Below, one piece after another: positions 9,381-61,315 of a stretch of DNA of 64,000 nucleotides (positions are counted from its first letter, which is position 1; each line of letters starts with the position of its first letter). Origin of the DNA: Amphiscolops sp. MND2022. Its lineage: Eukaryota. The notes beneath the pieces were generated by a model. That model did no database searches. It saw only the letters and a list, made by a program, of their open reading frames with translations, and was not told the origin of the DNA. Both the position numbers and the translations under genes were made by a program. The stretch is from positions 38,626,001 to 38,690,000 of the forward strand of contig OZ076410.1 of NCBI GenBank assembly GCA_964187785.1, given 5' to 3'.

Positions 9381-10925
9381 TGTCATAACCTTCATCGTTT
9401 TCACTCTGTTCAGAATCTCCTGAACATTCTATTTGATGATTTGAAAGGTTATTTGTTGTCTTATTTAGTCTATGAAAATTCTCTCTTGAGTCTTGGACCC
9501 GCTGGCCAATTCTAATTTTATGCCGTCCATACGACCCTAGGTCCACAGTCTGGTCCATAGGGACGTTTCTACTCGGATGCCGTCCGTCTGACCGAAGGTC
9601 CAATTTCGCGTTTTTACGCTCCCTGTGGTTTATGATGACATTTTCAATGCTCGGTAGTATTTTCTCATCAATAGCAGAGTTGATTACCTCCATGATATGG
9701 GAATTAAGATCAGATTTCATTTCCTCCAATTTCCTTGACATCTGTGAAGAGATTTCTGAACTAATTGCTCTGCTAGTTTCTACTGTAATTTCACTATTCT
9801 CACTTAAATTTGTATTCAAAAGAGATCTATAGTTACTTTCTTCATGACTGAAACCTTGTTGCTGTCTACTTGACTCAGGGTCAATTTCTATTTGATCTAC
9901 CGTGTTCTGGTCCCTAGTATCGCTGTTTGTATAATTTCCGAGCATCACATCTAGATTTTCAATATCAGACATTATGTCAGATTGTCTTGAACGTTTCTCT
10001 CTTGCTTTTTGCTTTCTGGTTGAAGGCATTTTCAAGAAATGGATTTGATTTCAACAGTGAATTGATCAATAGTAACAAACCAAACAGTTTTGTATCGTAG
10101 CGTTTTCAATCAATGAATGAATCCCTCCTTTTACAAGTTCCGCGTATATATAGTTTGTACTGCATGACACGCAATCTTTTGCGTGTCAGGAACTAAATTT
10201 AGGGTGATATCATTCTAAATATAGCCCCGATTAGATTATTAGGTCACTAGTTCTAAAAATAGACTGAGGGTTTTGACATTACGTCACACAAATGAAGAGA
10301 TATAAATAGCATCAAACAAACAGTGGGTATCTTTACATGTATTCAGGTTAAAATCAACCTTTCATGCATTGGTAACATCAATATTCAATGAAATTCTAAA
10401 TTTGACCATGCGTCAGCATGACTGCAATGATAGACTGGTACTTTACTCTCATTGGTCAACAAGTACTTGTGACCACACGTCGATTTGACTGCAGTAGAGT
10501 ACTAGTTAATTAGCTAAGATAAGTGTTTTAAGGTACTCTTTAAACACCGTTTAACAGCACTTGAGTTACTTAGCTAAGTGTTGCGTCACTAACTAAGTGA
10601 TGTACTTTAGGTTCAGATTAATTGCAAGTAATTTCATCAATGGGAAATTCTAAATAGTAACAAATCAATAATAGCAATTGAATAAATGCACAGATTAAAT
10701 GCCGTCAGTTTGACCTTTGGTCTGAATAGTAATATCGAAATTGCATGTTTAGCGTTAATAATTCGGTCATTACATGCATGAAACAAATATTAAACTATCA
10801 GAATAGATGCTAAAATCCGTTTCAGAGTTTGTCCTAGATAGGTAGTACACCGGGGGCTGGTGGCGTCTCATTACCTTGTGGCATCATTTGGTATAGGATG
10901 CCGTCACAAGCGGCAGCTTGCGACA
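9381..10925 (-). repeat. 3' LTR of element A (carries the first about 218 gag codons and the tail of the accessory ORF)
   Basis: Direct repeat of 23983-25527; only two substitutions noticed by eye; ORF 9358-10035 is the LTR copy of the gag 5' end. Confidence 0.97.
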
Positions 10926-11658
10926 CTCCCCCCGGTACAAGTATGAACGTCCCTGCTTTCATACCTGCCTGGAATGCATCACGTCTAGCAATCCGCTGCT
11001 CATAAGTTTCTCCTGGAATGTGTGTCTGTTCAAGGTACCCCAATGTTATTTCTTCTTTAATGTCCGCAGATGATTTCCCACAGATCACGCAACCAGTTTG
11101 GGTCGTCTCATTCGGTTGGCCACAGCTTCCCCCGACACTAATTCCGAGGCCCGTGATGTGTGAGTTGCCATACCATGAGTCTGCCAAACCTTGAGGTTGC
11201 GTAGGCTGGTAGGCGTCAACTGAGGGTCCTTGGTCTTCTGGCGGAGGTGACCATGGGGAGTCCAGTATTGGGTTTAGCTGGCCACAATACGTTATTGGGT
11301 GGTCATCCGCATTTGAGCCATAAGAGGTTCTTGGGGGGCCCCCAACACACCAATCGAGCAAGTCTTGTGACGGGTCTGTAAAAGTGCTCACTGATCCAAT
11401 TAGATCGTCATCTGGTATGTTCAGGTCGTTCAAGCAATGAGCTAATTCTGTAATCATCGCCCGACCCGCGGTGAGTTGTGGAGGGAAAGGTATATTTTCA
11501 CGATAACAAGCAAGAACTTGTATGTCGTCGTCCGAATCTTGACCTTCAGGTCCGTCTGCAATGGACACTGAGTCCACTTCCATTTCTTCATCAGATGACT
11601 GGTACGAAAGGCTAACCAGAGGTCTATCGTGTTCCTCCAAAGAAAATTGTAGAGACAT
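10834..11658 (-). CDS. Accessory sense ORF of element A, 274 aa from MSLQF, unknown function
   Basis: Homologous along its length to 58336-59160 (MSLQF, SDxxxVLAC, CVxCGK, IKEExTLxYLExTH, LVPGGVSQA, PGVLPI); crosses the PPT and stops inside the LTR. Confidence 0.85.
   Translation of the reverse strand: MSLQFSLEEHDRPLVSLSYQSSDEEMEVDSVSIADGPEGQDSDDDIQVLACYRENIPFPPQLTAGRAMITELAHCLNDLNIPDDDLIGSVSTFTDPSQDLLDWCVGGPPRTSYGSNADDHPITYCGQLNPILDSPWSPPPEDQGPSVDAYQPTQPQGLADSWYGNSHITGLGISVGGSCGQPNETTQTGCVICGKSSADIKEEITLGYLEQTHIPGETYEQRIARRDAFQAGMKAGTFILVPGGVSQAAACDGILYQMMPQGNETPPAPGVLPI
10926..10933 (-). other. Polypurine tract GGGGGGAG of element A
   Basis: Abuts the TGTCGC start of the 3' LTR on the element strand; identical in element B. 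Confidence 0.85.
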
Positions 11659-12299: not shown

Positions 12300-12390
12300 G
12301 TAAGAGCAATAGAGATAATAATATTGATAATAATAATTGTACTGTTATCAGTAATAATAATAGTAATAATAATAATAATAATAATAAGGA
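12300..12390. repeat. (AAT)n-like low-complexity tract in the internal spacer of element A
   Basis: AATAAT runs; a shorter ATT run occupies a similar position in B (about 57715-57735). Confidence 0.7.
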
Positions 12391-28419: not shown

Positions 28420-30366
28420 TCTAGTCGGCGCCTTTTCCCTTAAGAAAAACGACCCGACTATTACATTGGGTAGTTTTTTCAGTTCACTCTCAATTATCCA
28501 CTTTTTTGTTCATTTGTTCAACTTGTTAGCCGAGATATTTTAGTTCGAATATAACGTTTTGAAAATTTGGATATATTGTTTTCAAAGTTCCAATGGCAGG
28601 ACTAAGGTCCTCCGTGTCCCTTAGGTCACAGGCAGACCTCCAGTCCTTTTTTGTAAGTTTAGTTTCAAACCCAATTGTTTCGTCTGTCTTCCTCGACATT
28701 GAACGGCATTGGACTCATAATACTTTGTCTGGAATTACCAATTTTTGGAATTGCTGAGCTAATAGCTCTACTGATATGAGAATGCATCATGGACAGCATG
28801 GCATCCATTTCTTGAGAAAGTCTCATGTTAATCTCGTTTGAGAAAATTTCCATAGATTCAAGGATTCTATCCTGTCTCGGAATGGCGTATCCATGACCAA
28901 AGTCCCTAATTTCATTTCCATGAGAGGAATTTCCTCTTGGATGAGAATTGGTTTCTGAGACGAAACGATATACAGATCCTTCTAATTCCCTTTCAACGAG
29001 GTTAACATTCACATTCCCAATCATTATGTCTTGTCAAAATCAGCCATCATGTCCATTTCTCTAGACTTTCTAGCTTTTGCTTTTTGTCTCCTTGTCGAAG
29101 TCATAAAAAATTGTTACGAGGGAAGAATTCAAATAGTTTTATCTTGTTGGTAAGAATTGTTTAACGGAACAACTGTATATCACGGGAACAAGTTTCAAAA
29201 GTGGTCCCCGAAACTAGTTGTCCCGGCTACATATACTCAAGCTAGCATGAGACGCATTATTACTACAGTCATGAAGTAAAAAAAAAGAAAAGACCAATAC
29301 CAAAAACAGCTCCGACTCTTCTTGGAAGTGATGACAACTAGTCATCAAAATAACTTCAAAGAGATTGATCGCTGACAGGGGTGACTGAAAATAAAAAAGC
29401 GCGAAAAATTAAACGTGTTCTACAAGGACATGTAACATTACCTGTAATTCAACAATTTAGGATTTCATGCAGGTATACATGTGTCTATTTTTCATTATGA
29501 GCCAGTGTATAACAGGTATAAACACATGTAGGATTGATACTAGTAGAGTAAGAGGGAACGGGGTTCCCCTCTAACAGCATCAAACTGAGATTTAATCAGT
29601 TATATGATTATATTACGGTTCATATTAGACAGCGCCTTTATTTCCATTTTGAATTGGGACTAGATGTCTACTAGCCGACACTGCACAGTTTGTTTAGCTG
29701 AGTGGCTGTGAACGGCCTTCAAATGAGAGTACCTACAAACAGCGCATTACAGCAATAAATAATCGCATCTGATTGGCTGTTGATACTTTGGACTCGTTGT
29801 CCGCGGCCACAGGAAAGAAAACGTTTGAATATTTTCCTTTGCATGTACGCCTTTGTGTCCAATTTCAATATTGCATGCTTAAGTTACTTGTGTAATTATA
29901 CAAAAGCAATGATGCTTTAGTCTAATAGCATCAAGTTTAGTCGAAATAAGATCATTTCGACATTCGGTCCGGTTATCAATATGGTATTCATTACACAACA
30001 AAATGTTAGCATCAGATTTAATACAAGAATGAAAGCTGCAAATTTAGTGTTAAGTTCGTGAATGACAGGGTTTCATTCACTATAGGGGAATTGTTCCCGG
30101 CAAGGCCTGATGGTAGTTGTATGATATTGAGTTCAGGTTGCCATCGCAGGCGGCAGCCTGCGACACCGATATAACGTTTTCAAAGTTCGGATATAACGCT
30201 TGCAAAGTTCGGATAGAACTTTTGAAAGTTCTAATGTAACGTTTTCAAAGTTCGGATTCCAAAGTAATGTTTTCATTTCTTTTATAGCACTATCGATTTT
30301 TTCCCAAATTTCACAATTTGTTGAGCCTTAGATATGGCGTCGACTAGGGCCGTTACCGGCTTTCTT
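28420..30366 (+). mobile_element. HINE-like element, copy 4, interrupted by a solo LTR
   Basis: 5' AGTCGGCGCC at 28423-28432; 3' GGCGTCGACTAGGGCCGTTACCGGC at 30336-30360; 22-bp repeat TTCGGATATAACGTTTTCAAAG on both sides of the insertion. Confidence 0.55.
28595..30165 (-). mobile_element. Solo LTR of a related subfamily (about 1.57 kb)
   Basis: Starts TGTCGCAGGCTGCCGCCTGCGATGG like the A/B LTRs; carries a decayed gag 5' end (MTSTRRQKAKARKSREMDMM); the left end and TSD (CCAAT vs CCGAT) are imperfect. Confidence 0.75.
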
Positions 30367-34699: not shown

Positions 34700-36381
34700 T
34701 GTCACAGGCTGCCGCCTATGACGGAACAAGGTTTACGACTACGGCAAGCGGACAGGATATAGCTCCAGGCACATTACTGATCTACTAATACTAGGAACTG
34801 ATGAACATTTAGTAGAACTAATTTTCAAGATATTTTAATATTATTTTGACACACTCATTTGCCATTTTATTAGTCTTTAAATTTTTGCTGGATGATCAAT
34901 TTTACTGTAAATGCAACGCGCAAAGATTCATGATTGTAAATTGAAAATAGAATACTATGCAGTATACAGGAAACGTGTTCAAATGCGCAAACGTCCTCTT
35001 ACGGCGTCATAGCTTACTTTTCAATGATCAACTAATCGCAGCGCAGTCTTTGTGGTATTAGTTTAAAGTATAACTCCAATATGCCGGTTACGGCTAATTG
35101 ACTCAATGAAGCTACTATTTAGATGGAACTAATCATCCTTTTATTAGATGTTTCATGATGTTCTGTTCAGCTAATAATAGTACACCTTTGACCACAGAGT
35201 ATCTAAATTGACTACTTTAATGTGCTATTGTGATTAAAGGACGTAAAACAATAGTTTGTTGTTTGTTGATGGTATTTTTAAACCAGTCTTTGAACCGTTT
35301 CTGGCAAAGACTTTATGGCCAACCTTGAGTATAATGGCCAATCCAGACCGGTTTAGTGCGAAGGCCAAAACATGGATAATCGATGAAATATTTTTTCAGA
35401 TGTTCAACTGGCTACGTGTGTAGGCACGTGCTCAGGAATGTTGACGCACACTTCAAATTCCCTAATTACAGTTGTTGCTTTGATGTTTGTAATTGTTTAC
35501 GGTCGAGGCGCATAGTTTTCTCGAATATGTTTGAACCGCTTTGAGTTAAATTCCTCGAAAACATTGATGTAGTTAATCAAGTGCAATAACAAGGTGCTAT
35601 TGATGAAAATCACATGTCAACTTAGGATGTTGATATTTAGTGAATTATGTGAAAAATGTGGATGTAACTATGTCAGGACTACATACGTGAAACTTTTCCT
35701 CAGAGGAACACATTTTGATATACCTTACTGACAGTCACACACTTTCAAAATACTACTTTCCCGATATTATTCAAAAAATAAAATCAGAGATTCTTTAGGC
35801 CTACTACAAGAAAGCAGAAAGGCAAAGCTAGGAAATCAAGAGAGGCTGACTTGTTATCAAACATTGAAAACCTAGACATAATGCTAGGCTGTAACTATCT
35901 AGATAGAGAAGAAAGTGAAATCAGCAACTCTGGCTGTAGGCCTGAAAATCCTAGCTACAATGCATTGGTAAACCACGATGTGAATTCTCACTCTAACTCT
36001 AGAGAAGATGAGATTAGGGATTATGCCGGAAACTGCCAAAACTGAGACGACAGAGAGAAGTTGACTCTAGTAGTGAAATTAATAGATTGTCAGAGGAATT
36101 GAACCAAAGGAACACTCAAAAAATGAATGGTCTGTTGAGTAGCGTGAGCTCACAATTTCAGAGAGCTATAATGGAGGCTATGAACGGACGAGTCTTACCT
36201 CAGATTCAAGCTACTCTAGGGTCCCGACAGGGACAAATGCCTGATAGAGGATTGGAGGTCCCAGGCAGAAGACCGGAAAGTAGATCTGAAGAAGTCCTAA
36301 ACTGCAAATTCAGAAGTAGTTCGAGAGATGAGCTTCCTAGAGACTTCAATAGAAACGAAGACCTAGAGAACACTCATTACA
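34700..36381 (+). mobile_element. Solo LTR of a related subfamily (1682 bp)
   Basis: TGTCACAGGCTGCCGCC ... CATTACA; perfect 5-bp TSD CTGAG at 34695-34699 and 36382-36386; decayed gag 5' end (TTRKQKGKARKSREADLLSNIENLDIMLG). Confidence 0.9.
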
Positions 36382-44569: not shown

Positions 44570-46249
44570 TGTCGCAGGCTCCCGCCTGCGATGGGAACTG
44601 GTATCAGGTTGCCCCTGATACCTGCGACAATTTACCCGTCCCCCCAGGAGTGCTGCTGATCTAAGCCGCAAAGACCATCAATACTTGAAAACATTATTCA
44701 TTGAAGGATTTGAACTCATTATTAGCTCAAATTTTTATCTATGTACAATTACGGACCTTAAGTCCATTTTCCCTAGTAAGACTTATAATCGGAGTTAGAC
44801 TCTCAATGTAGTACATTTGCGTGAAATCTAGTAATTTTGCTATCTTATGGATCTACCATATTCAATGCATATATTTAGTCATGTAAACCAGTAGTCAATT
44901 ATAGTGAATGTAATCAATTGCGTGCAATTAAAATTAACAAAGCAGCTATATAGTTGAAAGGAAACGCGTTCGAATTGTCCCCCGCGTTGGTCAGTTCGGA
45001 CGCGTTGTCCGCCAAATTATTCAACCAATCAGCTGTGAGCACTAGTGCTTTCGTTCACTCATTCGCCGCAATTCACGTCTACACGTATTAGTGTGGACCA
45101 CCAGTCCAAGTGCTATACTCTATTTACATTAGTTTGTTATATAAACAAATAGAGTTCTCTGGAGCGGTGTTATGTTGCTAATTAGACATAAAAGACTTAC
45201 CGCCATTTAGCCCCCCCCCCACATTAGCTTTCACTCCCTTTCGTAGAATTAAGCTATTTTTAGAGTGATGTCACTCTTCTAATAATATCCCCAGGGTGAT
45301 TTTGCCCGCATTTGATGCTATTAATATACCAAACCCTAGAAAACGTCACTATGACGTCAGGTACAGTAATCTAATTTTATCCCTGTGATGATCATAATTT
45401 TGCGTGTCATGAGGCGCTGATTATAAATAGTGGGGACCCGAGGTCTCCAGGATCACAATCAACAGTCTGTTTTGACCACGAATACACACACAATCCATTC
45501 CAAGTGAACTCTCAACTTTATTCAATCTTGACGCATAGTCAATTTGCCATATCTTGCTACTCTACTTAACTATCAATCATTCATTTGTTTCCTCGTTCTT
45601 TTAAATATACTGTAGAAGCTCTAATATACTCTTAGTTGAGCTCAAGTCTCTTCAATGCCTTCTACCAGAAAACAAAGTGCTAGAGAGAGACGCTCTAGGC
45701 AAATAGACATAATGTCTGATGCTGAGAACTTAGATGTAATGCTTGGATCATATCCTAGAAATGACTTAGAAAATGATTTTGATAGAAACGATGAAATGGA
45801 CCTAGAGTCTAATAGGACAAGAGTTGACTTAGCACAAAATAGTGAGGATTTTAGGTCACTTTTGAACTCCAACAGTAGAGAGAACAGTGAATCAGCTGTT
45901 GAAACTATGAGGCTTGTTAACTCTGAGGTCACTAAGAAAATTGATGAACTGAGAAGGGAACTTAATTCTCAGTTAGTAGATGCTATAAACTCAGCAATCA
46001 CTGAGAAGGTATTGCCTGATATCAGAAATATGGTGACCAGTCAAAATTCAGTATTTCGGGAAGAAGTGGACCACAGGTCCAGAGGACCAAACAGGACCTC
46101 CGAAGAATTAGGTAGTAGAAACGCTTGGAAAAGCAATTCAAAGCCTACTTTGGCTTCCAGTAGTCGACAAGACAATCTCAGGAGAAACTCAGATGTTTCT
46201 CAGTCCAGTGATGATGATCACGAAGAAATGATAACTAACAGTCATGACA
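44570..46249 (+). repeat. 5' LTR of element B
   Basis: Repeat of 59066-60744; roughly 15-20 substitutions plus one poly-C indel by eye. Confidence 0.97.
45400..45429 (+). promoter_or_regulatory. Putative LTR core promoter TTGCGTGTCATG-N10-TATAAATA
   Basis: Motif and spacing shared with the A LTR. Confidence 0.6.
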
Positions 46250-47370
46250 TGGTGACAGGAGCCAAACCTACCCCTCGTACGGTTCCTGAATTCCTTACTG
46301 GACGGCCCATGCATGCCCGAGAAGAAACACACAATTCCAATTCCCCACGAAATCAATCCTCAGAAAATGTCCCTCCAGTCCAAGAGACAAACATCAACGA
46401 TAACTCAGACCCCATTAGGCGTCTTGCGGATGTGCTGGTTGGAATGAACAGCAAATCATCAGCGCAGACACTGATGGTAAGACCCGTCAGCACCACCACA
46501 CTGACGTTTGATGGCAAATCGGAGAAATTTGAACTCTTTGAAGATCTTTTCCATACTATGGTAAAGATGCAACCCGAAATGACGGAAACCATGAAAATCA
46601 ACCACTTCCACTCTCTGTTGAGGAAAAACGCCCTGCAAACTTTCTGCAACATCAATACCGCTAATAGGCAGACTCTGGAAGATGTACTGGCAGTCTTTCG
46701 ACGCAAGTACGTCAAACCAGAATCTCAGGCAACAGCCAAACACAAATGGCACAAACTAGTGTTTGACCCAAATACTATGAAACTGCCTGATTTCCTTGAA
46801 GAATTAAATCAGGGTGCGGAAAAGGCATTTGGAGAACACGTTCAGGCCATGATAGACAGCCTATTGTACGCCAAATTGCCTCCAAAACTCAAACGGTCTG
46901 TCAATATGGCTAGGCTTGAAAATGCGTCGTATGAGGAAATAGTCACTCATCTAGAACGCCAGCTTGAACTTAACGGACTTGAGGAAGGTGACGACATTCC
47001 AGTACCTACAATGTCCACTGCCCCTACAGCAACACGACCGGGAACTGGCCTCCTTTCATCGGGTATTGACCCCAATATCACCTGCAATTATTGCAAAAAA
47101 CCCGGCCACGTCAAGGAAGACTGCCGAAAACTCAAACGAAAGGAGGAACTAAGGCGCAACGAAGGGCAGGATACTAAAAAAGAATATCCCAAATGTCCAA
47201 CTTGCGGCAAAACAAATCACCCGGCGGAACGTTGTTGGAAAGGCGCCGGAGCCCACCTCAAGCCCAAAAACCTCAAACTGGAGGACGCCAAACAGGACGA
47301 AGCGTCCCCCGGACAAAATGAGACCAAGGACAAACAGTCCACCTCTATATTAAAAAACTCAAAAAACTAG
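45655..47370 (+). CDS. gag: Gag of element B, 571 aa, two zinc knuckles
   Basis: CNYCKKPGHVKEDC and CPTCGKTNHPAERC; core nearly identical to A gag; ATG lies in the 5' LTR. Confidence 0.93.
   Translation: MPSTRKQSARERRSRQIDIMSDAENLDVMLGSYPRNDLENDFDRNDEMDLESNRTRVDLAQNSEDFRSLLNSNSRENSESAVETMRLVNSEVTKKIDELRRELNSQLVDAINSAITEKVLPDIRNMVTSQNSVFREEVDHRSRGPNRTSEELGSRNAWKSNSKPTLASSSRQDNLRRNSDVSQSSDDDHEEMITNSHDMVTGAKPTPRTVPEFLTGRPMHAREETHNSNSPRNQSSENVPPVQETNINDNSDPIRRLADVLVGMNSKSSAQTLMVRPVSTTTLTFDGKSEKFELFEDLFHTMVKMQPEMTETMKINHFHSLLRKNALQTFCNINTANRQTLEDVLAVFRRKYVKPESQATAKHKWHKLVFDPNTMKLPDFLEELNQGAEKAFGEHVQAMIDSLLYAKLPPKLKRSVNMARLENASYEEIVTHLERQLELNGLEEGDDIPVPTMSTAPTATRPGTGLLSSGIDPNITCNYCKKPGHVKEDCRKLKRKEELRRNEGQDTKKEYPKCPTCGKTNHPAERCWKGAGAHLKPKNLKLEDAKQDEASPGQNETKDKQSTSILKNSKN
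46250..46265 (+). other. Primer-binding site TGGTGACAGGAGCCAA of element B
   Basis: Follows the LTR-terminal CA; encodes MVTGA in the gag frame. Confidence 0.85.
47361..47367 (+). promoter_or_regulatory. -1 frameshift heptamer A_AAA_AAC (a second one at 47352-47358)
   Basis: TTA AAA AAC TCA AAA AAC TAG; pol is in the -1 frame. Confidence 0.75.
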
Positions 47371-50300
47371 ATTTGCCACGACTCCAATTTAATGAAAAAC
47401 TTAGAGTTAGACAGTATATAATCTCTGACCCTTCTAATGTATTTTATATTGAATATTATTCTTCTTTAAAGGGAACCTCATCGGCTGACTGGCAGCAGCA
47501 AATGAGAAGTACCCCTACTCAATTTTGCAGTTCGGACCACAGGTCCGACGGACTTGACTCGACTACGGACAATATCCGACCTTTTCCATCAATCCCTGAC
47601 TATAACCCCTATTACATCGATCCGGACTATGGATATGACCCCTACTGGGGTGTACAAATCTACAACCAACACGAGTTGCATTTCTATGCCAACTTTAACA
47701 AACAACAAGCCGAAATCGAACCTGACTGTTCTGTGGCAGACGAGGCTCTCAACAATATTCTGACTATGGCTCTGGTAGACCAGTGGCAATTGGTACCCAA
47801 TTCACCTGCTCTACCACCACCACAGGAGCCCGAAACAGAATTCTACACATTTGGACCACAAGTCTCTTTGGCGTCAGCCGTCGAGGCACGATTCGTCAAC
47901 ACTCTGGTCACCAGAAATGGCGAACCAGATTATGTACCGCTGACAACCAACCTCGGACTCAAATATAAACGGCGTATGCTCTACTTTCCAATGGATTTTG
48001 GCGATCTTACATTAGATGGCCTTGTAGACACGGGAGCCCTATCTAGCGCGATCCCTGAAGCTGATCTACGTAAAATCCGATTACTAGCCCCTCAGTCAAT
48101 TGTCAAAGAGGGCCCAGCACCCAACTTCCAAATAATGGTAGCCAATGGGCAGCTGGAAACTCCAAAGAGCACCGTCGAACTAAAATTTGAGGTCGGCGAT
48201 ATAGAATTTCACGAAATTTTTATTGTAATGGAGAAACTCACAAGTCCTTTGATTGGTCTTTCGTTCTTGCAACGAAACAACACCATATTGGACATGAGAC
48301 AGGGAGTCCTAAATTTCCCGTTCTTCTCCATGCAATTAAAGACGGCGGATCACAAGTACACCAACGTCATGGAACCTATCTGTACGCAAGAAGATATAAC
48401 CATCCCTCCCAACGATAGACACCTAGCTACGTTAACTTCGCAGATGTACGACGATACCACCGTTACTGGTATATTACAACCAAGCAACGCCCTCACTGAG
48501 GATGAGGGTATCATCTTTTGCGCGGCATTGGTCACATTGACCTCAGGTCAAGTTGAAATTCATCTGAATAACTTCACTGACCACCCTTATACTCTCAAGA
48601 GAGGTTCGCATGTCGCTAATTTCTCTGTCATGACCCCAGGACAGATGAAATACGTCAAACCTGTTGACCAGGTGACCACATGGCACCTTTTGCAGGACAA
48701 TCCTGAAAATGCTGCCTTTTATGTTAGCAGCCTGATTAAATCTGCAAAACCAGAAAATTTTCGTGAAAACTATTGGTTTCCTACCCCGGAAGACCCTGGG
48801 GATCCACAACAACATACGCCTATACAAAAGCGTATTCTGACTGAGCTCTTGATTTTACAAGAGCTAGAGAAGCTTAATCCTCAGAATGACCCTGAGTCCA
48901 GACGACAATTCTTGACCAACTTTGATTGGACTGATTCTATGCTGCAACCAGACGAAATTGCTCGCATTGAAAACTTTCTAGTCGAATTTCACGATATATT
49001 CGCTAGACACCGTTTCGACATAGGCATGAACGAGGAATTTAAGATCAAATTGACCCCAAAAGATGATTCCCCGGCTATAGTCAAAGTCTACCAACGCCTA
49101 TTAACCTCAAGGAAGACATCCTTGTAGAATTGGCACTGTTACAACGATACGGGATTATAACAACTCTCCCATTTTCCAAGTACGCTAGCCCAATCTTTGC
49201 CCAAAAGAAACCTAACGGCAAATTGAGACTGCTAGTCGATCTTCGTAAGATTAACAACCTAATTTCGGATAATTATATCAACAATAATCACCCCGTCAGT
49301 ACACTAACCGATGCTGCCCAACATATGGCCGGCAAAAGGCTATTTTGCAAGTTGGACTGCTCGCAAGCATACCACTGCTTGCAAATGGCGGACCAACGGT
49401 CGATTGAAATGTTGGCGTTTAATTTCGCCAGCAGGACATTTGCTTACCGCAGGTTGGCACAGGGACTCAGTCGTGCTTTATCAGCCTTTTCAAACTTTAT
49501 GCGAGAATATCTCGACAAAGTAATCAAAGCCGACCAATGTGCACAATATGTCGACGATATTGGCATTGCTGGCAATGATGCCGAACAGCTCATAAAGAAC
49601 CTGCGGGCCACTTTCCAATGCATCCGCGAGGCAGGATTGAAGCTCACAATGCACAAATGTCACTTTGGTGCGACAGAAATTGACTTTTTGGGTCGAACGA
49701 TCACGCCAGTTGGCGTACGTCCACAGCGACCACGAGTCCAAAATTTCCTTGAAAATACGAAATTTCCGAAATCAAAGAAAGCATTGCAGCGATACCTGGG
49801 ATTTCTTAACTATTATCGCAACTATATTCCCAGGCTTTCAGAGAAATTAACACCGTTCTTTAAATTATTAAAGAATGACGAAAAAGTCCTGGTAACACCG
49901 GACCTATTGGAGAAATTTACCGATATCAACAAAGCACTTGACCGCTGTTGCGAATTAGCACTTAAACAGCCACTACCGAATAAACAAATAGCTCTCATGA
50001 CTGACGCCAGCTTTATGGCCGCTGGGTACGCAGTCCTAATTGAAGATGATCCGCAAGAAAAATACACTTCAACGAGAAAAGCGTTTGCTCCGGTAGCTTA
50101 CGGGTCAAAGACCTTTAGTCCCGCACAATTGAAAATGTCCATTTATGCAAAAGAATTCTTAGCCATATTCTTTGCGTTCAAGGAATTTGGGCATATCTTT
50201 TGGGGGACGCCAAAGCCGGTAATTATACTAACCGATAACAAATCCGTCACGCGTTTCTTTCAAACAAAGATATTACCACCAACGTTGTGGTACGCGTGTG

Positions 50301-52311
50301 ATTACCTCATTCAATTCAACTTCACAATAGCACACATTCCCGGTAAAAACAACACAGCTGCTGATTATTTATCGCGTTTAGAAGTTTCACCGAAAGAAAA
50401 ATTAATCCTTCGCATTAGCGAAGATATTCCCACTACGCCAATTGAACTTCACGTCCAATCCGCGGGAATTACCGAAGAAGAACAAATCTTCTATACTGAC
50501 GATGACGATGAGACGGAAGAACAAATCTGGCAAAGGAAGAAAGAATCACGAGACAATCCTTCCAACCAAATGCCGGATATTTCTTTTGAAGAATTTACCA
50601 CTCATCGCAGCAATTACCAAGAACTATCCATTTGTCAAAAATTAGCCAATATCAACACTGTGGCTATAGAGCAAAACAACGACGTCATTCTACAACAACT
50701 TAAACTCAAAACCCAAAAAGAAAAATATTCTGAAACGATCTTGATACAAGACACAAGATATCAGCACTACCTACGTCAGTTAGACCGAATGTCCATCCAA
50801 GACGAAATCATCACCAGACAGTATTATGACGAAACAGGAAACGTCAAATACAATCAAGTGCTTTTACCAAAACATCTGGTAAATGAATTGCTTGAATCCC
50901 TCCACGGAAAGGCAAATAGACACCCGGGCATTGCAAAAATGTTACAAGAGATTCGTTCCAAATATTATTACCCCGGAATAGCGAAACTAGTCCGCAAGTG
51001 GGTTAATGGATGTGAAATTTGCATCAAAGATAAAAGAATTCCAAACGAGTTAATAACTCCTGAGCTCCTTAATTTGCCAGAATGGACCTTGGGTCCAGAA
51101 GACGCAATGCAAGTAGACCTCTTGTCGAACCTCCCGCCGAGCGGAGGCTACGGAAATATTATTACTGCCATGGACGTTTTTTCGCGTTACCTTTTTGCTT
51201 ACCCAGTTACTGACGCCTCAGCCGCAAACACTGCCAAGGTCGTTATCGACATCATGACCAAGCACACTTATTTGCCGACGACTTTGATTACCGATAAAGG
51301 ATCAGCCTTCACATCAAAGTTAGTAGCTGAAATAGCGCAAATTCTTGGTATTCAAATCAAATGTGCGACGGCAAAACACCCTCAGACCATAGGGAAACTG
51401 GAAAGAACACACGCCAGTCTCAAGACTACTCTCAAAATGGCCTCAGGGGAGTACAGACGTCAGTGGCACAAGTACTTGCCGTTAGCAGTCCTAAATTACA
51501 ATACGTCTTACCACTCGACGTTGGGCTGTGAGCCTTCAAGGATATTTCATGGCCGTATACCATACAACATCCTAGACCACAAATTAGGGCTTAATCCAAA
51601 CACGCAGGTCCTGCCGACCACGGACTTTGCTGAGGAATTTCAACTCAGATCGCAGATTTTGGTCGATGCAACAAAAAAAAACATCATGCAGTCTTATTTG
51701 AAGTACAAAGACTATTACGACCGAAAAGCCAAAGCCGCACCTTTGAAAATCAATGATTATTGCTCTATTTCGCAACCTATAGCTGATCATCAAGGATCCA
51801 AAATCCCTTTCCGAGAATTTCGTTGGATCGGACCTTACATTATTGCGAAAGTTCTACCCAACGATAATTATATAGTGCGCAAGCTCAGTTCCAACAAGAC
51901 GCAAATTTTACATAGAATACGTCTTCGAAAATATGAGCCTAATACTGACTTACAGGACGATCGCCCAGAAAGGAATTTGCAGCCTGACGATGAAATTGTC
52001 ATTCCTCAAGACGACCTCTACGTAATCACGTGGGAAACGAACTTTGGAGACTTCCAGTCTGGTCGACGTAATGCGACCTACGAGCAATCAACCGAACGAG
52101 CAGAAAATACGAACGATGCAGCTGCCGATTTTGAGCGGCCAGATCAAATACTGACCGATGTGGACCTGAGGTCCACTAGACGTGATGCGACGGAGGAAAC
52201 TCTTCCTGAGCGAACTGCAACCGATTCTGATATGAAACAATTCCAGGTGATGAAACATCATCAGGGGGGAGCGATACTATCGTGCCCGAAGTATTAGAAA
52301 GCGAAAAATAG
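47361..52311 (+). CDS. pol: Pol of element B (PR-RT-RH-IN) with single-base frameshifts near 49075 and 52232 and a missing C-terminal tail
   Basis: Same motifs as A pol; SPAYSQSLPTP reads across a 1-nt deletion; the GGRYNLRPNP tail of A is absent. Confidence 0.93.
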
Positions 52312-52520
52312 TCAGAACATTCAATTGTTACATCCCATCTTTTCTCTTTGCCCATGAGGACATGTATTTTTACTGGGACCGCTCTGACTTTATTTTTTGC
52401 TGCAATTAATAGACTGTCGACAAAGCGACTTAGAGGAAGAACAAAGAAATAAATACAAATGCAGTGTATAGTTTAAAGTTTACATATGTACTGTGCGTAC
52501 AATCAGTCTTTGCTGCTACA

Positions 52521-55500
52521 TTAGCGCAGGCTCTTAGCAGACTGGGCCACTTCGGAATCCGACAAAAGATGCGTCGGACGCACATTCTTCTTCGAGTACT
52601 GTAGGGTACTGGGGGACTGCTGGACGATGACGGAACTGGAAGTACCCGCCTTGCTGGCTTTGCTCTGAAGTCTGCGATCAGGATGCAACTTCGACAGAAT
52701 CTCCGTCCTCCCGAAATTATCCAAACCCGACCATGGATCATACCTGTCGCCAAGCGCGGTGCGACCGAAAGTGGACTCCATTTCGAGGAATTCGGAGATT
52801 GAGGCATCGCTGGTCACTGACTCGACTGAATTGGCCACTTGGTGGAAGTATGATTGTACCGGCAGTACAATGTCCACTAGCTTGCTGGTGGGATCCTCCG
52901 TGTTGACTGAGCTAAACCTGACTGTTGGAAGACTTCGAAAGGGCTCGTCAATGCACAGGCAGGCCAAACTGAAGCAACTCAGCAGCAAAGGACGTGTGGG
53001 CAAGTTCGTTTGCCCCATTAGGAAGGTGATAGTGTCCTTGATCAATAAAGTTGGCTGATCAAACTCCGAGAATTTGACGCGCAGCTCGTCGACGAAGGAC
53101 AAGTAATCTTCCTGCGCTGGAGGCTCTTGTTCCTGGGAGAAATACCCACGGAGACGGAAGATGGTAAATAGCTGACTAAAACACTTTGTGGCCAATGAGA
53201 GAGGCAGCTTTAGGAGGATTTCTAAGTCAAAACTAGCTAATCCTTGGGCAATGTTCGTGGTAAAGTTAAAGTGACCACGCGTGTCCTTGAATAAGTGCGT
53301 CACATAACTTCTCGCCAAACGTCCAAACTCCTCCTTGGCTTTCTCCTTCAATTCGTCGATTGACGTCTTCTCTCCCTTCTGTTCGTGCTGGTCAATCTCA
53401 GCTTTCAGCTTGCAAGCATGGTCAAGCTTCACCCCAAACTTAGTCCTGTTGAGGAACACTGTGACTTTGAGGGCAGGGGCAGTTGTCGTGTCCAGATCCA
53501 GAACGCTCGCTATGTCCTCCTCGGCAGGCAAAGCAGTAGGAAGAACAACGCGCTTGGCCAACTTGCGGAGGTAGAGACAAAGCTGGCGAAACGAGTAGAA
53601 GGCCCTGTCACGTCGGCCACTGAGACTGAGGGAGAAACTGGTGGTATCTGAAACAAGTCATGAGGACGACCTACGCCATGAAGACCTACGGTCCACAGAA
53701 GCAACGCCAACCAAAAGGGATCCAAGTTGGAACAGTCAAGCTTAGATTGGAAATTTAACGAAGTCTCAGCGCAGTTCAAGTCAAATGATACCTATAAGGT
53801 TACTGCGAAGCAATGTGAAGGCTAAAGCACAAGAAAACTTAAGGTACTAACAATCACGAACGAGCTTTCCAAAGAACTCTAGCTTGCAAGGGAAGAAGTC
53901 ATCGTGAATGATGGAGCGCCCAAAGTTCTGTGGCTGAAAGAAAACAGATGTTATTGAGATTTGCTCTACCAGTGACCATGAGGTCAGCAGTCGCAACTTG
54001 ACCTACCTGATTACGGACTCCTTGCATTTGCTGCTGTGGTGAATGGTCAGAGAGATAATTGATAACAGTCTTCCAGTTAGCCATCAACTCCTGGCACAAT
54101 TTTGGGACTGTCGTCACGTCGAGCTTGCAAGTCTTTATGGCCTAAACGAAAACCCTGTTTCACACCAAAACAAGTTTTAGGCAACACACGGAGAATAGAC
54201 CGAGAGTCTTGCCTTTGTTAATTCAGGGGTGAAGAGGGTCCATTCCATCTCGAGGCTTCCACTCAAGCAAACGACCAGGTATTGCAGTACCGAGAAGAAG
54301 TCGATGCGCCCGAACACGGAGTAACTGTCCTTGTGCATCAACTTCTTGATTGCAATCTCGTCAAAGATGGTCGGACGCTGTACCCCATGCCTGGTGAGTG
54401 GCGACCGATCTAATAACTGCACTAGACCACGCGTAGCCCCGGAGCAACACACCAGATCAGCTTCAGTGGAGATCGCAGCTAGGAGGGTAGTTACATGGTT
54501 TACCTCAGCCGACGTCTGTCCACAGGTCCTACCGGTCCGTCGTAGGTAGACTCGACACAGTCTATCACCCTTCCAGAACCTGACGTGGAGCAGAAGGAAA
54601 ACCCCTTGAGGTTCGAACTCCACAGCAAATTGTCCAGAGGTCAGGATGTCGTTACCGATATTTGGGACAATCTGAGTGAACAGATGATGGAACAACACCT
54701 TAAAAACAACTTTGGATTAGACCATACGAACACAAATGTCCACCCGGGCCTACAGTTCAAAACCTGAACAACAACTCTTGGAGTCTAGTCAATTCTATAC
54801 AATACGGTGATGGGACTAGAAGTCATTTAGACATGAAGGGACTACTTACCGAGAGTCTTGTCGTGCTCCAATCGATGTCGCTGAAAATGGCCTGGTGGTT
54901 CACGGCCGCGCCAACTTGCTGCCAGAGACTTCGAAGGACCTGAATGTCTCCGGACAGAGGCAAGAAACGTCCTAGTACGGAGATCTGCATTTTGGCGCGA
55001 TTCTGAGGTGAAGGAGCCATGTAGTCTACGCCTGCCATCGCCTCGTCGTAGAACGGCAACTTCTCCCCGATGTCCACAAGTTCGCTATTGATGAAAAGCG
55101 GCAACTCCAGTTGGAGCTGATAGTTAGAGAGCACTTGGCTGTTTCGTCCTCTGACTTGATATCTACGCCGTTTGGTGAGGGGATCTTCAATGGTGAGGTA
55201 CTCGTACCTCCAGCGCTGGTCTTTACGCAAGTGTCGTTTAGTTGCGTAATGTCGCAAGATTTCCTTCGGGCCTTTAGCTCGTATCGACACGTTACACTTG
55301 CAGATCTGGCAGTAGATCTTATGCTTATTCCACTTGGGGTCGACTGGCCCCGACACGAACGTTCTGGTCCACGGCATGGACTCAAAGTACTCCTCCTTCA
55401 TGACTCGGCCTATTCGTCTTCTAGGTCGCGCTGGTCCCCGGGCTCTTGTTCGGGCTGGATTCTGCTTCCTGGAGTGGCGTTGTTCAGTGATGGCCTCTTG

Positions 55501-56870
55501 TCTGATAGTGGCGAGAGTTTCCATTCCAGGACTAGAGGGGCTACGGGTGACTGGGGATCGGACTCGAAGTCCGCTTGCCTTCTGTTGCCAGCGGTTGGAG
55601 GAGCAGGCATCGCCACACTTGACTGAAAGTCAGGTTGGGACTCCGCCTCACTGGTCATCCCTGGACTAGCGTCACCTTTTCGAGTGTCATAGGTGATGAC
55701 AGAATCGCTACCAATATCTGTGTCAGTATCTGGACCTGATGTCGAGGCAGCACGCCTCCGAGGAGTTGCTTTCACGGGACTGCTCAAATTCAGTCTGCTT
55801 GCCCGCTCTACCACGCTGTTCAGCATCTCAAAGGACGCTCGGGCGCTCTCGTCTGCCACAATCCTGAGGATGCTGGTAATTTGATCTTGATTGAGAGCAA
55901 TGACAGGATGCCCGGGATCAAGGCAGATAGGGTTTACTTCAGTGAAACACTGTTTGATTATGACCCTGCTGGTACCTGACAGGGGAGGAGGTCCTGTACG
56001 AGGTGTTAAATCAGGAATACTAGAATCATGGCTGGATTCATCATGGCAAGGAATCTCACGGACCTTTGTTAGGCTATAAAGTGCTTGGCGCAAAGTAGAC
56101 CGAACCATGGATCCGGTGTCGGTCTCCATCCCAAAGCAGGAATCTTCATCGGTCTGGTACCGGTAGTCCATTGGTCCACGGTTGACTTGTGGCTCACCTG
56201 AGCCAGAGCCTTCAGCGCCTCGGCCTTCTCCAGGCGCTACTAGTTCACTGGAGCCAAACTGTACTTGGGCAGGTATTTGTTCTGTAAATCCAACGTTCTC
56301 AAAGTGGACTTGCCTTTCTGCACTGGTACCATCAACTCCGAAGTCAAGTCTGGATGTGCTGGGGGTTTGCTCATCTATTTCGTGAATGGTCAAAGGACTC
56401 TGTTCCACGGTAGCAGCATTGTTTGGTTCCACTGATGAATCAGTCTTGTCTAGAAATACAACTCTAGGGATGCTTTCTGACGGCTGGACCTCAGGGATCA
56501 TCTCGTTCAGTGCGGGGGTTACAGCAACTAACTCGCTCACACTCAGTTTTACTTCGGTAGGAATCTCATCTGCGGGACTAGCAGGAATCTTATCTGCGGG
56601 ACCAGCAGGATCACGTTCAGCGCTGTCCAGCAATTCAACTGTGCGTTTGATGTACGCATCACAGCTCTCCAAATCGGTGTTAGACGACAGTTCAATTACG
56701 GACCTCTTGTCTGCTGGGACTTCTGTGACTTCAGGCCCTGGAGCCTGTTCAATTGATGGCGGATCTACTTCCATCTCTTCAGCAACATTTTGCTGCGGTT
56801 GGCCGTCCATTACTTTGCCTAAACGGAAAGAAATAAAATTTCGCGATTCACTTCCGCTGAAGAAATCCAT
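52521..56870 (-). CDS. Antisense spliced gene of element B; exons 56870-54850, 54698-54213, 54141-54007, 53933-53852, 53647-52521; about 1280 aa
   Basis: Introns of 151, 71 (GC-AG), 73 and 204 bp; internal exons are 486, 135 and 82 nt, exactly as in A; finger at 55231-55311; one frameshift near 55537. Confidence 0.85.
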
Positions 56871-58335
56871 CTTATCGCGTTTGAAAGACTTTCGAAAGCA
56901 AATTCATTATTTGTTCATACCTATGATTGAATATTTCACGATGGAGGAAGTGAAAATTAGTCAATGGGAAGCCCTGATCAAGCTCAAAATTGGCAAAATT
57001 ATCTAAAAGAACCAACCTGATGTTTATCCAACTGGAAGACAGAATTCGAAAGGCGTGATGTAGCTGACTGAAGGTATATGGTCTGCCTGAACTGTGAATT
57101 TGGCTCGGGGAAGAAGCAAATGGAAGGAAATTGTCAGCTGGAAGGAACAGTTGTGAGGGCACCCAATGTCAATTAGATCACTAGTCAAATTAAAGGAGAT
57201 TCAAGAAATGAACAGACTGAGTTGAGAGAGCTGCCAAGGAGTTGATTCTCAAAATGTAGTATGCACCTGCACTGTGCCAAGGATAGAAGATGAATCTGCA
57301 ACATGGGGAATTCTGAGCTGGGGATCTATGCTCAACTTGTTCAACTGGTCGATCAAAGGACGATTAGACCAGTGGTCCAAGAAACGAAATTACAAGTAAA
57401 TATTGCTAAAGGGACACTCCAGCAAGAAAGTACTCCAAGGAAACTTGACGATCCAATCTGGAACTGTGGAATAGAATTAAAGTGGCGAATTCAAAATGTA
57501 ACAATGATGTAGTTATCAATTCAAAAGATTGCAATGAAGACTGTGGAAATTAGAAGACTGGTTTACTATGTTTATGACAATTCGACTACAAGTCTTATTT
57601 ACCAATTCCTACTTCTTACCATCATACTTGACTGCCAAGACAGATAATTACTTGATCAACTCTTACATTAAATTCATTTACATCAAAGGACGTCGTGGCT
57701 ACATGTAATTAACTTATCATTATTATTATTATCTCCTTTAACTACCTATGCATCATGACCTTTGGTGTTACGGAAACTGTCAGTGATGTACACTTTTGGT
57801 CATTTCTTTCACATTTCTTTGTTTCTTTAGTTAGAATTACCATCGTTACCATTATTTGATTCCATTCATATGACCCATTTTGTTATTTTCATTCAAAATT
57901 CATTCAGAATTTTCATTTATTTATCAAAGTGCTCTGATTGGTCAGTTGGTCTCAGCTAGCCGCGGAGACCGCCGGTCTTTGATGACACTCCACTGATGTT
58001 GATGAGCGATGGTAAACAATCTCACCACTCGTTAACATTCTTCAGCAGTTACTATAACCACTTGAGACTGGACTCAAGGGCTTGTCAACTTTACGAGCCG
58101 CTCAATATCAAAACGATATTAAGAAAGGAATCTGCTAAATAAGGAAATGTTTTGAATCGGAGGGAAGCGACGGGGAAATTTTCCCTAACCGGATTTCCCG
58201 CGAATTTTCAACCCTATGACTTAAGGTCGACTGGCCTAAGGCAGCCATTCTTCTGAATCTCAAATCACAAATCAGCAGCTCACACATATTCTTAAAATAG
58301 CTAAGAAAATCTTACTGAAAAGATTTCGATCAGAA

Positions 58336-59160
58336 ATGTCTCTGCAATTTGCCGTTGACGACTTGATTAGCCCTTTGGTCAGTTTGTCTTACCTGTCCTC
58401 AGGGGAGGAAGACATGGAATTGGATGATCCACAAGCGGCCGCAGATGAGGAGGGGTACGATAGCGACATCGAAGTCCTGGCTTGCTTCAGCGAGTCACAT
58501 TCTGTGAAGCCTATGGGCGTGGCTGCACGTACAATGACAACTGAAACCTACAACGAGGATGACGATCTAACACTGGTCGAAGAACTCTACGGGCGAGCAT
58601 GCAAGGTGGACTCAGAGCCAACCGATGATCTAGTCGACTTAGTACTGGGCAATGGACCCCCTAATCATAGTATGATCCCTGTAGGCGAGAAACCGATAGC
58701 CAGGTGTGCTCAAATGCAACCAATTCCCGACACCCCACGGTCTCCACCTGCCCACGAGAGAGGCCCCACCTCCACCTTTGACAACACCCAGTGGGCTAAC
58801 TTTCAAACTGCCTACGAGCCCGAGCATGCCCACATAACGGGGATAGCTGTAAGCGCAAGCGGTGTCTGCGGGACCTCAAATTTCGTGGCCAGAGGAGATT
58901 GCGTGGTGTGTGGGAAAGACTTTGGGTCTATCAAAGAGGAAGTGACATTAGACTACCTGGAGCGGACTCACTTATCCGGCGAATCTTATCTAACACAAGT
59001 AAGGAAGAGGAATGCGTTTGAGGCAGGCATGGCCGCCGGCTCATTTCTTCTCGTACCGGGGGGAGTGTCGCAGGCTCCCGCCTGCGATGGGAACTGGTAT
59101 CAGGTTGCCCCTGTTACCTGCGACAATTTACCCGTCCCCCCAGGAGTGCTGCCGATCTAA
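58336..59160 (+). CDS. Accessory sense ORF of element B, 274 aa, unknown function
   Basis: Homolog of 10834-11658; crosses the PPT and ends 95 nt inside the 3' LTR. Confidence 0.85.
   Translation: MSLQFAVDDLISPLVSLSYLSSGEEDMELDDPQAAADEEGYDSDIEVLACFSESHSVKPMGVAARTMTTETYNEDDDLTLVEELYGRACKVDSEPTDDLVDLVLGNGPPNHSMIPVGEKPIARCAQMQPIPDTPRSPPAHERGPTSTFDNTQWANFQTAYEPEHAHITGIAVSASGVCGTSNFVARGDCVVCGKDFGSIKEEVTLDYLERTHLSGESYLTQVRKRNAFEAGMAAGSFLLVPGGVSQAPACDGNWYQVAPVTCDNLPVPPGVLPI
59058..59065 (+). other. Polypurine tract GGGGGGAG of element B
   Basis: Directly precedes TGTCGC of the 3' LTR. Confidence 0.85.
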
Positions 59161-60744
59161 GCCGCAAAGACCATCAATACTTGAAAACATTATTCATTGA
59201 ACGATTTGAACTCATTATTAGCTCAAACTTTTATCTATGTACAATTACGGACCTTAAGTCCATTTTCCCTAGTAAGACTTATAATCGGAGTTAGACTCTC
59301 AATGTAGTACATTTGCGTGAAATCTAGTAATTTTGCTATCTTATGGATCTACCATATTCAATGCATATATTTAGTCATGTAAACCAGTAGTCAATTATAG
59401 TGAATGTAATCAATTGCGTGCAATTAAAATTAACAAAGCAGCTATATAGTTGAAAGGAAACGCGTTCGAATTGTCCCCCGCGTTGGTCAGTTCGGACGCG
59501 TTGTCCGCCAAATTATTCAACCAATCAGCTGTGAGCACTCGTGCTTTCTTTCACTCATTCGCCGCAATTCACGTCTACACGTATTAGTGTGGACCACCAG
59601 TCCAAGTGCTATACTCTATTTACATTAGTATGTTATATAAACAAATAGAGTTCTCTGGAGCGGTGTTATGTTGCTAATTAGACATAAAAGGCTTACCGCC
59701 ATTTAACCCCCCCCCACATTAGCTTTCACTCCCTTTCGTAGAATTAAGCTATTTTTAGAGTGATGTCACTGTTCTAATAATATCCCCAGGGTGATTTTGC
59801 CCGCATTTGATGCTATTAATATACCAAACCCTAGAAAACGTCACTATGACGTCAGGTACAGTAATCTAATTTTATCCCTGTGATGATCATAATTTTGCGT
59901 GTCATGAGGCGCTGATTATAAATAGTGGGGACCCGAGGTCTCCAGGATCACAATCAACAATCTGTTTTGACCACGAATACACACACAATCCATTCCAAGT
60001 GAACTCTCAACTTTATTCAATCTTGACGCAGAGTCAATTTGCCATATCTTGCTACTCTACTTAACTATCAATCATTCATTTGTTTCCTCGTTCTTTTAAA
60101 TATACTGTAGAAGCTCTAATATACTCTTAGTTGAGCTCAAGTCTCTTCAATGCCTTCTACCAGAAAACAAAGAGCTAAAGAGAGACGCTCTAGGCAAATA
60201 GACATAATGTCTGATGCTGAGAACTTAGATGTAATGCTTGGATCATATCCTAGAAATGACTTAGAAAATGATTTTGATAGAAACGATGAAATGGACCTAG
60301 AGTCTAATAGGACAAGAGTTGACTTAGCACAAAATAGTGAGGATTTTAGGTCACTTTTGAACTCCAACAGTAGAGAGAACAGTGAATCAGCTGTTGAAAC
60401 TATGAGGCTTGTTAACTCTGAGGTCACTAAGAAAATTGATGAACTGAGAAGGGAACTTAATTCTCAGTTAGTAGATGCTATAAACTCAGCAATCACTGAG
60501 AAGGTATTGCCTGATATCAGAAATATGGTGACCAGTCAAAATTCAGTATTTCGGAAAGAAGTGGACCACAGGTCCAGAGGACCAAACAGGACCTCCGAAG
60601 AATTAGGTAGTAGAAACGCTTGGAAAAGCAATTCAAAGCCTACTTTGGCTTCCAGTAGTCGACAAGACTATCTCAGGAGAAACTCAGATGTTTCTCAGTC
60701 CAGTGATGATGATCACGAAGAAATGATGACTAACAGTCATGACA
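59066..60744 (+). repeat. 3' LTR of element B (carries the first about 198 gag codons)
   Basis: Repeat of 44570-46249; ORF 60150-60758 is the LTR copy of the gag 5' end. Confidence 0.97.
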
Positions 60745-61259
60745 GCTATTGTCTCTAATGTGCAATCATGTTCTCCGCTACTATGGTTAGCGGTGGTGTT
60801 ATGTGATTGGCCTGTTTGCAGTGACCCCCCGGGAGAGTCCGAATCCCCCTCTCACAAATTCAAAAACTTTAGCATTTTGAGCCGTAGATATAACGCCTAC
60901 TTTATACGTTCTTGTCTTGTTCATTAATGCTATTAAATCCTTTCATTGATGGCCTTTGATTGGGCACCGGTATGCCTTTCTATTGAAAATTTAGCAGGTC
61001 TTTGTAAGAACTTGTTCAGAATTTACAACAATTTCGCTCTAGTCTTGCGAAGATCTTGCGATGATATCGCAGTACCCATGGTAACATCTTACCAAGATAG
61101 AGATGCAAACACTTATTAGGAAAGCCAAAATGGCAAACCTAATCTCTCCGGAACATGCTGAATAGCCAGAATCAAATAGCGTCAGAAAAAGCTTAAAAAC
61201 TTATGATACTGAGTAGTCTCCCAAAAACTTTTGAAATCTTCACTAAAATGATCGGAAGA

Positions 61260-61315
61260 TCAACAAGCCGGGAACGGCATAAGTCTGCGCCATATCTTGG
61301 GTTCAAAAAAACAAA
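61260..61315 (-). repeat. 3' terminus of a HINE-like element, reverse orientation
   Basis: Reverse complement reads TTTTTTGAACCCAAGATATGGCGCAGACTTATGCCGTTCCCGGCTTGTT. Confidence 0.5.

Follow-up and report, generated by a model that had tools for sequence, protein, structure and literature searches.

A selected accessory gene crossing the polypurine tract into U3 in an abundant acoel Ty3/Gypsy retrotransposon family

The reading frame at 58336..59160 on the forward strand of the window, by which we mean the whole 64,000-nt stretch of Amphiscolops sp. MND2022 DNA analysed here, is a genuine protein-coding gene. It belongs to a Ty3/Gypsy family that carries a dUTPase and abounds in the host genome (1.07 Gb). 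Purifying selection acts along the whole of the encoded protein, including the part that lies in U3 of the 3' LTR. Judging from sequence comparisons, the product appears to be a new protein family with an unusual layout, within the wide group of extra ORFs that LTR retrotransposons carry. It is under selection over thousands of copies of an animal retrotransposon, and its motifs point to the SUMO pathway.

The host elements and a frame that enters U3

Two full-length Ty3/Gypsy elements, A and B, lie in opposite orientation within the window. Their assignment follows from the LTR-gag-PR-RT-RH-IN-LTR order, TG...CA ends, target site duplication (TSD), primer binding site (PBS) and polypurine tract (PPT). 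Both encode gag with zinc knuckles and pol with protease, dUTPase, reverse transcriptase (RT), RNase H and integrase. Their parts, together with two solo LTRs (C and D), are as follows.

9381-25527, reverse strand: element A, LTRs of 1545 nt differing at 2 sites (99.87% identical), TSD CTCTC
10834..11658, reverse strand: orthologous ORF of A, 274 aa, stop at LTR nt 92
13161-17427, forward strand: antisense gene of A, conserved, intron-containing
30080..30165, reverse strand: solo LTR C, decayed, with the ORF tail at the LTR start
34700 to about 36381, forward strand: solo LTR D, TSD CTGAG, with the ORF tail at the LTR start (34700..34788)
44570-60744, forward strand: element B, LTRs of 1680 and 1679 nt differing at 18 sites, TSD GCTAT
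44570..46249, forward strand: 5' LTR of B, with the gag ATG at 45655 inside it
45655..52297, forward strand: gag and pol of B, two zinc knuckles in gag, pol frame change near 49070-49130
46250..46261, forward strand: PBS of B, TGGTGACAGGAG, 12 nt complementary to a host tRNA 3' end
52521..56870, reverse strand: antisense gene of B, six or more conserved coding segments bordered by GT/AG
58336..59160, forward strand: accessory ORF of B, AUG-initiated from MSLQF, 274 aa
59058..59065, forward strand: PPT of B, GGGGGGAG, within codons 241-244
59066..60744, forward strand: 3' LTR of B, whose first 95 nt are the ORF tail including C250 and the stop

Translation bore out that the ORFs of A and B are both 274 aa long; their proteins are 44% identical. 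The frame does open with MSLQF, as a sequence-only reading of this DNA had stated, but this is probably not the sole or not the first start (see below). The same reading placed the codons of P-G-G-V-S-Q-A across the PPT and the LTR start, which is what we find (CCG GGG GGA G|TG TCG CAG GCT): the 3' LTR of B begins at 59066, and the ORF stop ends at LTR nt 95. The frame overlaps both the PPT and U3, in the manner that marks nef, sag, tas and bet. The tails at the starts of C and D also translate as had been claimed, from 30166 (reverse strand) and 34699 (forward strand), except that the first Val of each uses one flanking base and is thus incidental. In 21 dereplicated LTR starts drawn from 99, the first stop falls at 24-33 codons in the ORF frame 17 times, compared with 4 and 0 in the other frames. 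Across representatives, the ORF stops at LTR nt 86, 89, 92 or 95, so that indels in U3 preserve the frame.

The last ~595 nt of the 3' LTR of B are a copy of the 5' end of gag. About 200 N-terminal codons of Gag sit inside the LTR (45655-46249 and 60150-60744 on the forward strand, 24631-23983 on the reverse), and the PBS is located within the gag frame. Solo LTRs consequently hold the Gag head besides the ORF tail, and the LTR codes for protein at both ends, with the ORF tail in U3 and the Gag head opposite. The dUTPase is found between protease and RT (47502-49127, forward; 19002-22460, reverse); this enzyme is described as uncommon among retrotransposons and present in rotifer and basidiomycete elements (PMC5408684). 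The primer tRNA, read by eye, appears to be an intron-containing Leu(CAA), for which ARAGORN made no call. A long tandem array of intron-containing tRNA-Leu(CAA)-like genes with a period of about 296 nt lies elsewhere in the host genome (locus L206, contig C8, about 35.59-35.64 Mb), and the pattern has 856 matches across that genome; the array genes are likely to supply the primer of the family.

Flanking element B (38275-44569 and 60750-61233) is an older, decayed LTR element from a different family, into one LTR of which B has inserted; this older element showed no match to the ORF, to the antisense gene or to the pol of B. The window also contains a fragment resembling a trypsin-type protease (33235-33645, reverse strand; Pfam E 0.026), CCATG-rich palindromic and tandem repeats (8016-8915), and a dispersed repeat of 48-65 nt in both orientations (853-900, 2456-2503, 26977-27024, 30318-30365, 60874-60921 and 61248-61312), possibly the ends of a small DNA transposon.

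Selection on the frame and its spread through the family

Selection was measured on 113 loci, from which 16 truncated or aberrant copies were dropped, leaving 97 full-length ORFs and, at <92% nucleotide identity, 19 subfamily representatives. A codon model gave an overall omega of 0.14, with 0.088 for residues 1-52, 0.169 for 53-160, 0.061 for 161-238, 0.378 for the PPT, 1.22 for the three att codons, and 0.131 (247-256) and 0.125 (257-274) for the tail in the LTR; synonymous sites are near saturation, so these values are approximate. With kappa taken on a grid under the null, omega=1 was rejected in all six partitions tested (2dlnL 47-672), the att codons being kept apart; the two LTR partitions contributed values of 47 and 94. 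In the two ungapped LTR blocks, variation is highest at third positions, and pN lies well below pS only in the ORF frame and its antiparallel mirror. Conservation is therefore not confined to the PPT and att nucleotides, a restriction that would have spoken against the sequence-only reading: omega stays at 0.061-0.169 internally and remains low in the LTR tail. Constraint at the DNA level is limited to the PPT and the att codons, with a pS of 0.016 over codons 244-247. This local constraint is what could favour a reading in which no protein is made and the open frame follows from conserved PPT/att and promoter DNA, but the rejection of omega=1 elsewhere, the frame-preserving indels in U3 and the variable third positions refute it.

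A search of the host genome with the ORF protein returned 6341 first-look candidates (6341-8142 across searches). Scoring 141 of them gave 142 matches, 121 without an internal stop, a share that is biased to intact copies since the scored ones rank at the top. Independently of the ORF, we ranked elements by integrase, sampled 20 of them evenly over rows 42-147 and examined the 10 kb that follow each. The ORF was present in 19 of the 20 (13 open, 6 broken), so other members do not lack it; in the remaining one, a shift of the antisense gene by about 6.5 kb would put the ORF out of range. Stretches upstream of divergent ORFs contained dUTPase, RT and integrase (75-80% identity) and the antisense gene in eight of eight cases. 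Relatives of solo LTR D were preceded by internal ORF sequence in 4 of 25 cases and those of C in 2 of 25; the remainder showed the tail only or no match, as expected of solo or 5' LTRs. Overall, the family is very abundant and, with only two differing sites between the LTRs of A, has been recently active.

Protein searches returned 143 and 605 relatives, with no name or Pfam domain among the matches listed. Some relatives come from other genomes: for one (P0131), full-length matches in the host genome do not exceed about 43%, and a metagenome contig (L183) has identical anatomy and matches the host genome over short stretches only, none full-length. The ORF family has no match in Pfam, PHROGs, NCBIfam, PDB sequences or the ESM Atlas, and a Pfam scan of 52 alignment members gave at best an E of 0.0038, to an unrelated family. 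No related locus was found in viral contigs or prokaryotic genomes (one peptide pattern per scan). No description of the family turned up in the papers searched on it and on TE accessory genes, although the repeat tables of acoel genome studies may list it; PMC13269885 yielded nothing relevant to it.

The comparison with nef, sag and bel genes made in the sequence-only reading holds for position and fails for sequence, as the ORF matches no known family; for nef, sag, tas and bet in particular, Pfam and PDB sequences gave no homology. A 3' frame likewise enters the 3' LTR in HIV nef and MMTV sag/rem, nef lying partly and sag wholly in U3 (PMC12789967). Here, however, it does so in a Ty3/Gypsy element without env, with no sequence similarity and with only 95 nt in the LTR; the Sag protein also has a transmembrane segment, which the ORF protein does not. 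A PPT and att site within a coding frame amount to a layout associated with complex retroviruses. Among plants, the additional ORFs of Grande (gene23), Retand and RIRE2 and the env-like ones of Athila are likewise shared throughout their families and located between pol and the 3' LTR; some are nuclear and have their own promoter (PMC7264820). Those ORFs are antisense, or env-like with transmembrane domains, whereas the present one belongs to an animal element, is a sense, soluble ORF crossing the PPT into U3, and stands head-to-head with a spliced antisense gene. The bdelloid elements Juno, Vesta and TelKA are also animal Ty3/Gypsy elements with a dUTPase between protease and RT plus an ORF3; the ORF3 types that PMC5408684 describes (env, GDSL esterase, DEDDy exonuclease or transmembrane proteins) have no counterpart here by Pfam.

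Translation start, promoter-like motifs and the antisense neighbour

Conserved features upstream of the ATG are the following.

57937..57941, reverse strand: CCAAT box (ATTGG on the forward strand), about 400 nt 5' of the ATG
58194..58201, forward strand: E2F-like site TTTCCCGC
58272..58276, forward strand: conserved (A/T)CAG(T/C), an initiator-like site or spliced-leader trans-splice acceptor
58297..58335, forward strand: in-frame 13-codon extension I-A-K-K-I-L-L-K-R-F-R-S-E, beginning with ATA in Kozak context

The extension has the consensus I-A-K-K-(I/L)-(L/F)-L-x-(R/K)-(F/Y/H), with pN 0.28 and pS 0.67 over 14 representatives; beyond extension position -1, identity is about 0.1 and in-frame stops occur. 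Among 134 loci with the ORF N-terminus, collected with no motif filter, 121 have an in-frame I-A/P-K-K. Its Ile codon is ATT in 76 and ATA in 45 but never ATC; in the ORF bodies, 90 of the 272 Ile codons are ATC. All 121 carry a purine at -3. The motif is missing in 13 loci, in about 8 of them by one-base slips in the A-run (three of these in one subfamily). In the P0155 family, the usual Met is missing and another Met lies within the extension. AUU and AUA are known near-cognate starts (PMC5666671). Such evidence suggests that translation probably starts 13 codons earlier, at ATT or ATA, giving a 287-aa form, in which case the 274-aa protein may be a short form. Alternatively, the extension motif may act as DNA or RNA. 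Folding of the RNA near the start was no better than in shuffles (z 0.15).

Among the 19 representatives, the CCAAT box is present in 18, against 5.6 in shuffles; the E2F-like site in 13 by a relaxed pattern (1.3 shuffled) and 9 by a strict one (0.9), according to what we take to be the E2F consensus; and (A/T)CAG(T/C) in 15, against 5.1. The windows for these motifs were picked after the alignment had been inspected. At the CAG, phase varies and T content is 0.32, compared with 0.56 at the intron acceptors of the element, which favours a start site over an acceptor. Cis-splicing at the CAG as the source of the extension was rejected, given that the phase differs among subfamilies and in-frame stops follow in some. 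Spliced-leader trans-splicing affects 30% of genes in one acoel (PMC9911081), and it is possible at the CAG; a leader that supplies the AUG was set aside, one acoel leader in the same source having no ATG. Overall, an own promoter and a non-AUG start are likely.

The ORF shares the space between pol and the 3' LTR with the antisense gene, the two diverging from a 1.4-kb spacer. The antisense product is acidic in its N-part and bears, besides a C-part, a C-x2-C..H..H zinc finger (about 55200-55330); each coding segment was found in 19-21 of 21 compared elements, and the finger is well conserved. We presume a likeness to BED-finger hAT proteins, with the C-part resembling hAT transposases. The gene had no match in Pfam, among longer proteins, in the ESM Atlas, in PDB or in viral contigs (one peptide pattern for the last), and its protein shows no profile similarity to that of the ORF. 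Just upstream of the antisense ATG, there is a strongly conserved block, non-coding or short-coding (56842-57030), perhaps a leader exon or promoter of that gene.

Protein features and possible function

The protein carries four conserved parts.

58375..58410, forward strand: motif 1, residues 14-25 (LVSLSYLSSGEE), degenerate here and a strict SIMa in the other main clade
58459..58479, forward strand: motif 2, residues 42-48 (DSDIEVL), a strict SIMr match
58696..58749, forward strand: conserved block I121..C124..P129..P-x-S-P-P, residues 121-138
58816..59157, forward strand: C-terminal domain, residues 161-274, conserved; contains H166, C189-x2-C192 and C250 besides a predicted helical stretch

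Properties listed in the sequence-only reading were reproduced: both window proteins are acidic (net charge -28 and -30), contain the CVxCGK motif (residues 189-194) and have no hydrophobic stretch, the maximal 19-residue mean being 1.25 and 1.28 on the Kyte-Doolittle scale. For 27 representatives at <65% identity, drawn from 107 full-length proteins, that maximum is 0.77-1.61, which leaves no transmembrane segment, and net charge is -13 to -35 in 26. The proposed description as a conserved accessory protein other than env fits these data, as the protein is family-wide, selected and devoid of a transmembrane segment; that it is also regulatory we infer, with the SIM motifs in support.

SUMO-interacting motifs (SIMs) were sought with the SIMa, SIMb and SIMr patterns given in PMC3395311. 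A strict SIMa or SIMr occurs in the first 80 aa of 23 of the 27 representatives, against 3.0 (maximum 8) in 300 shuffles; since a chance match arises in about 1 in 9 such stretches and ancestry is shared, this count rests on roughly two independent origins. Four representatives have neither motif, and SIMb, seen in one, is not above chance. Per 80 aa, the ORF N-terminus has 1.0 matches; three further acidic regions that these elements encode have 0-0.07. Strict motif 1 is kept in one main clade (e.g. IIYLSSDDEE) and strict motif 2 in the other, including the window copies, where motif 1 fails the strict pattern; the split between the two clades is weakly supported in the tree (76/78). A hydrophobic core flanked by acidic or Ser residues, typical of SIM-containing SUMO readers, is present. 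The host has a SUMO gene (L193), whose sole named relatives come from acoel worms (83% and 80% identity), in line with an acoel-like host. From these motifs, we consider it rather probable that the protein binds SUMO; a SIM cannot tell whether the effect is activating or repressing.

The middle region is variable and Pro/Ser-rich, and block 121-138 within the protein is a possible phosphorylation or docking site. In 52 alignment members, C189 is conserved in 52, C192 in 49, C250 in 50, C124 in 48 and H166 in 44; C250 is encoded within the LTR (59083-59085). The C-terminal domain is a candidate zinc site. The Rad50 zinc hook (CxxC between coiled coils) gave weak matches in 3 of 52 members (best E 0.0069). 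No match was found to a RING, which a SUMO-targeted ubiquitin ligase of the RNF4/ICP0 type requires; only C124, H166, C189, C192 and C250 are conserved.

The reading we favour, at slightly less than even odds, is a nuclear SUMO-binding regulator that would act on the chromatin of the element and keep it transcribed. A short mRNA of its own might start at the internal promoter (CCAAT, E2F-like and Inr-like motifs) and end in the 3' LTR, so that the ORF could be expressed apart from genomic RNA, plausibly in cycling cells. Initiation at ATT/ATA would leak to the AUG, so that a basic amphipathic helix would head one form of the protein and be absent from the other. One or two SIMs in the acidic N-terminus would mediate SUMO binding; the C-terminal Cys/His domain may fold around zinc into a small module for dimerisation or for docking on a partner. 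The protein could shield or de-repress the LTR of its own element through contacts with SUMO-modified chromatin factors, and DNA recognition would probably fall to the antisense zinc-finger protein as its partner. SUMO drives H3K9me3 silencing of repeats in Drosophila (10.1101/533232), and its use for repeat silencing in acoels is assumed here. VANC of VANDAL elements, a TE accessory protein that lifts the silencing of its own family, has the role proposed here (PMC6719617); VANDALs, however, are plant DNA transposons and VANC acts on DNA methylation, with no homology to the ORF protein, whose role is hypothetical. A further-reaching version is a two-gene counter-silencing module in which one internal promoter, firing in both directions in cycling stem cells, would express the antisense zinc-finger protein and the non-AUG-initiated SUMO-binding protein, which would jointly target the LTRs of the family and disarm SUMO-dependent heterochromatin; this extended version we regard as unlikely.

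Several other functions have to be weighed. The protein might be a transactivator like Tas or Tax, with the N-terminus as activation domain, incidental SIMs, and a zinc module binding the LTR or the internal promoter. The acidic N-terminus with its spaced hydrophobic residues and the internal promoter motifs would suit such a function, but the protein has a strongly negative net charge and shows no evident DNA-binding domain, and strict SIM spacing, which activation domains usually do not need, is retained in two clades. The layout resembles that of foamy tas/bet, 3' regulatory gene(s) with an internal promoter (PMC12789967); unlike there, the promoter here is deduced from motifs, the ORF is paired with an antisense gene, homology is lacking and transactivation is putative. 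Taken together, we hold this function to be improbable, though worth keeping in mind.

Lower still we place a self-limiting repressor for copy-number control, whose SIMs would recruit host SUMO silencing, or HP1, to the element. The SIM evidence serves it equally well, and a PxVxL match, which we take to be an HP1 motif, occurs in 9 of 27 representatives against 1.6 in shuffles, including PLVSL at residues 13-17 of the window protein, where it overlaps motif 1. Self-control by TEs is documented (PMC6719617). PxVxL is nevertheless restricted to one clade, and the abundance and recent activity of the family argue against self-repression.

Of the same low probability is a post-transcriptional or particle cofactor, which might export unspliced genomic RNA in the manner of Rev or CERV, or else act in nuclear entry or in the choice of integration sites. 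The introns of the antisense gene, the length of the genomic RNA and the basic N-extension are compatible with it, but the 274-aa form has no arginine-rich RNA-binding stretch. CERV of the C. elegans element Cer1 is likewise an orphan accessory protein of an animal LTR retrotransposon, nuclear and needed for RNA export (PMC10309623); it is made from a spliced 5' mRNA, however, and the database searches with the ORF gave no sequence link to it.

An env-like or small fusogenic protein, suggested by the location between pol and the 3' LTR and by the short ORF3 of rotifer Vesta4 (220-230 aa with cysteines), is very improbable and largely refuted, as the ORF protein has an acidic N-terminus in place of a signal peptide and no transmembrane segment, the rotifer ORF3 has two transmembrane regions (PMC5408684), and viral glycoprotein homology was found neither in Pfam and PDB sequences nor in PHROGs and viral contigs.

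In one acoel species, LTR elements account for 85% of a repeat share of 61% (PMC9911081). Given this dominance of LTR elements among acoel repeats, the family described here may matter for acoel genome size. If the SUMO reading is true, the elements of this family may tamper with the gene-silencing machinery of the host, and a counter-silencing module, should it exist, would help to account for the expansion of LTR elements to about half of the genome in acoels.
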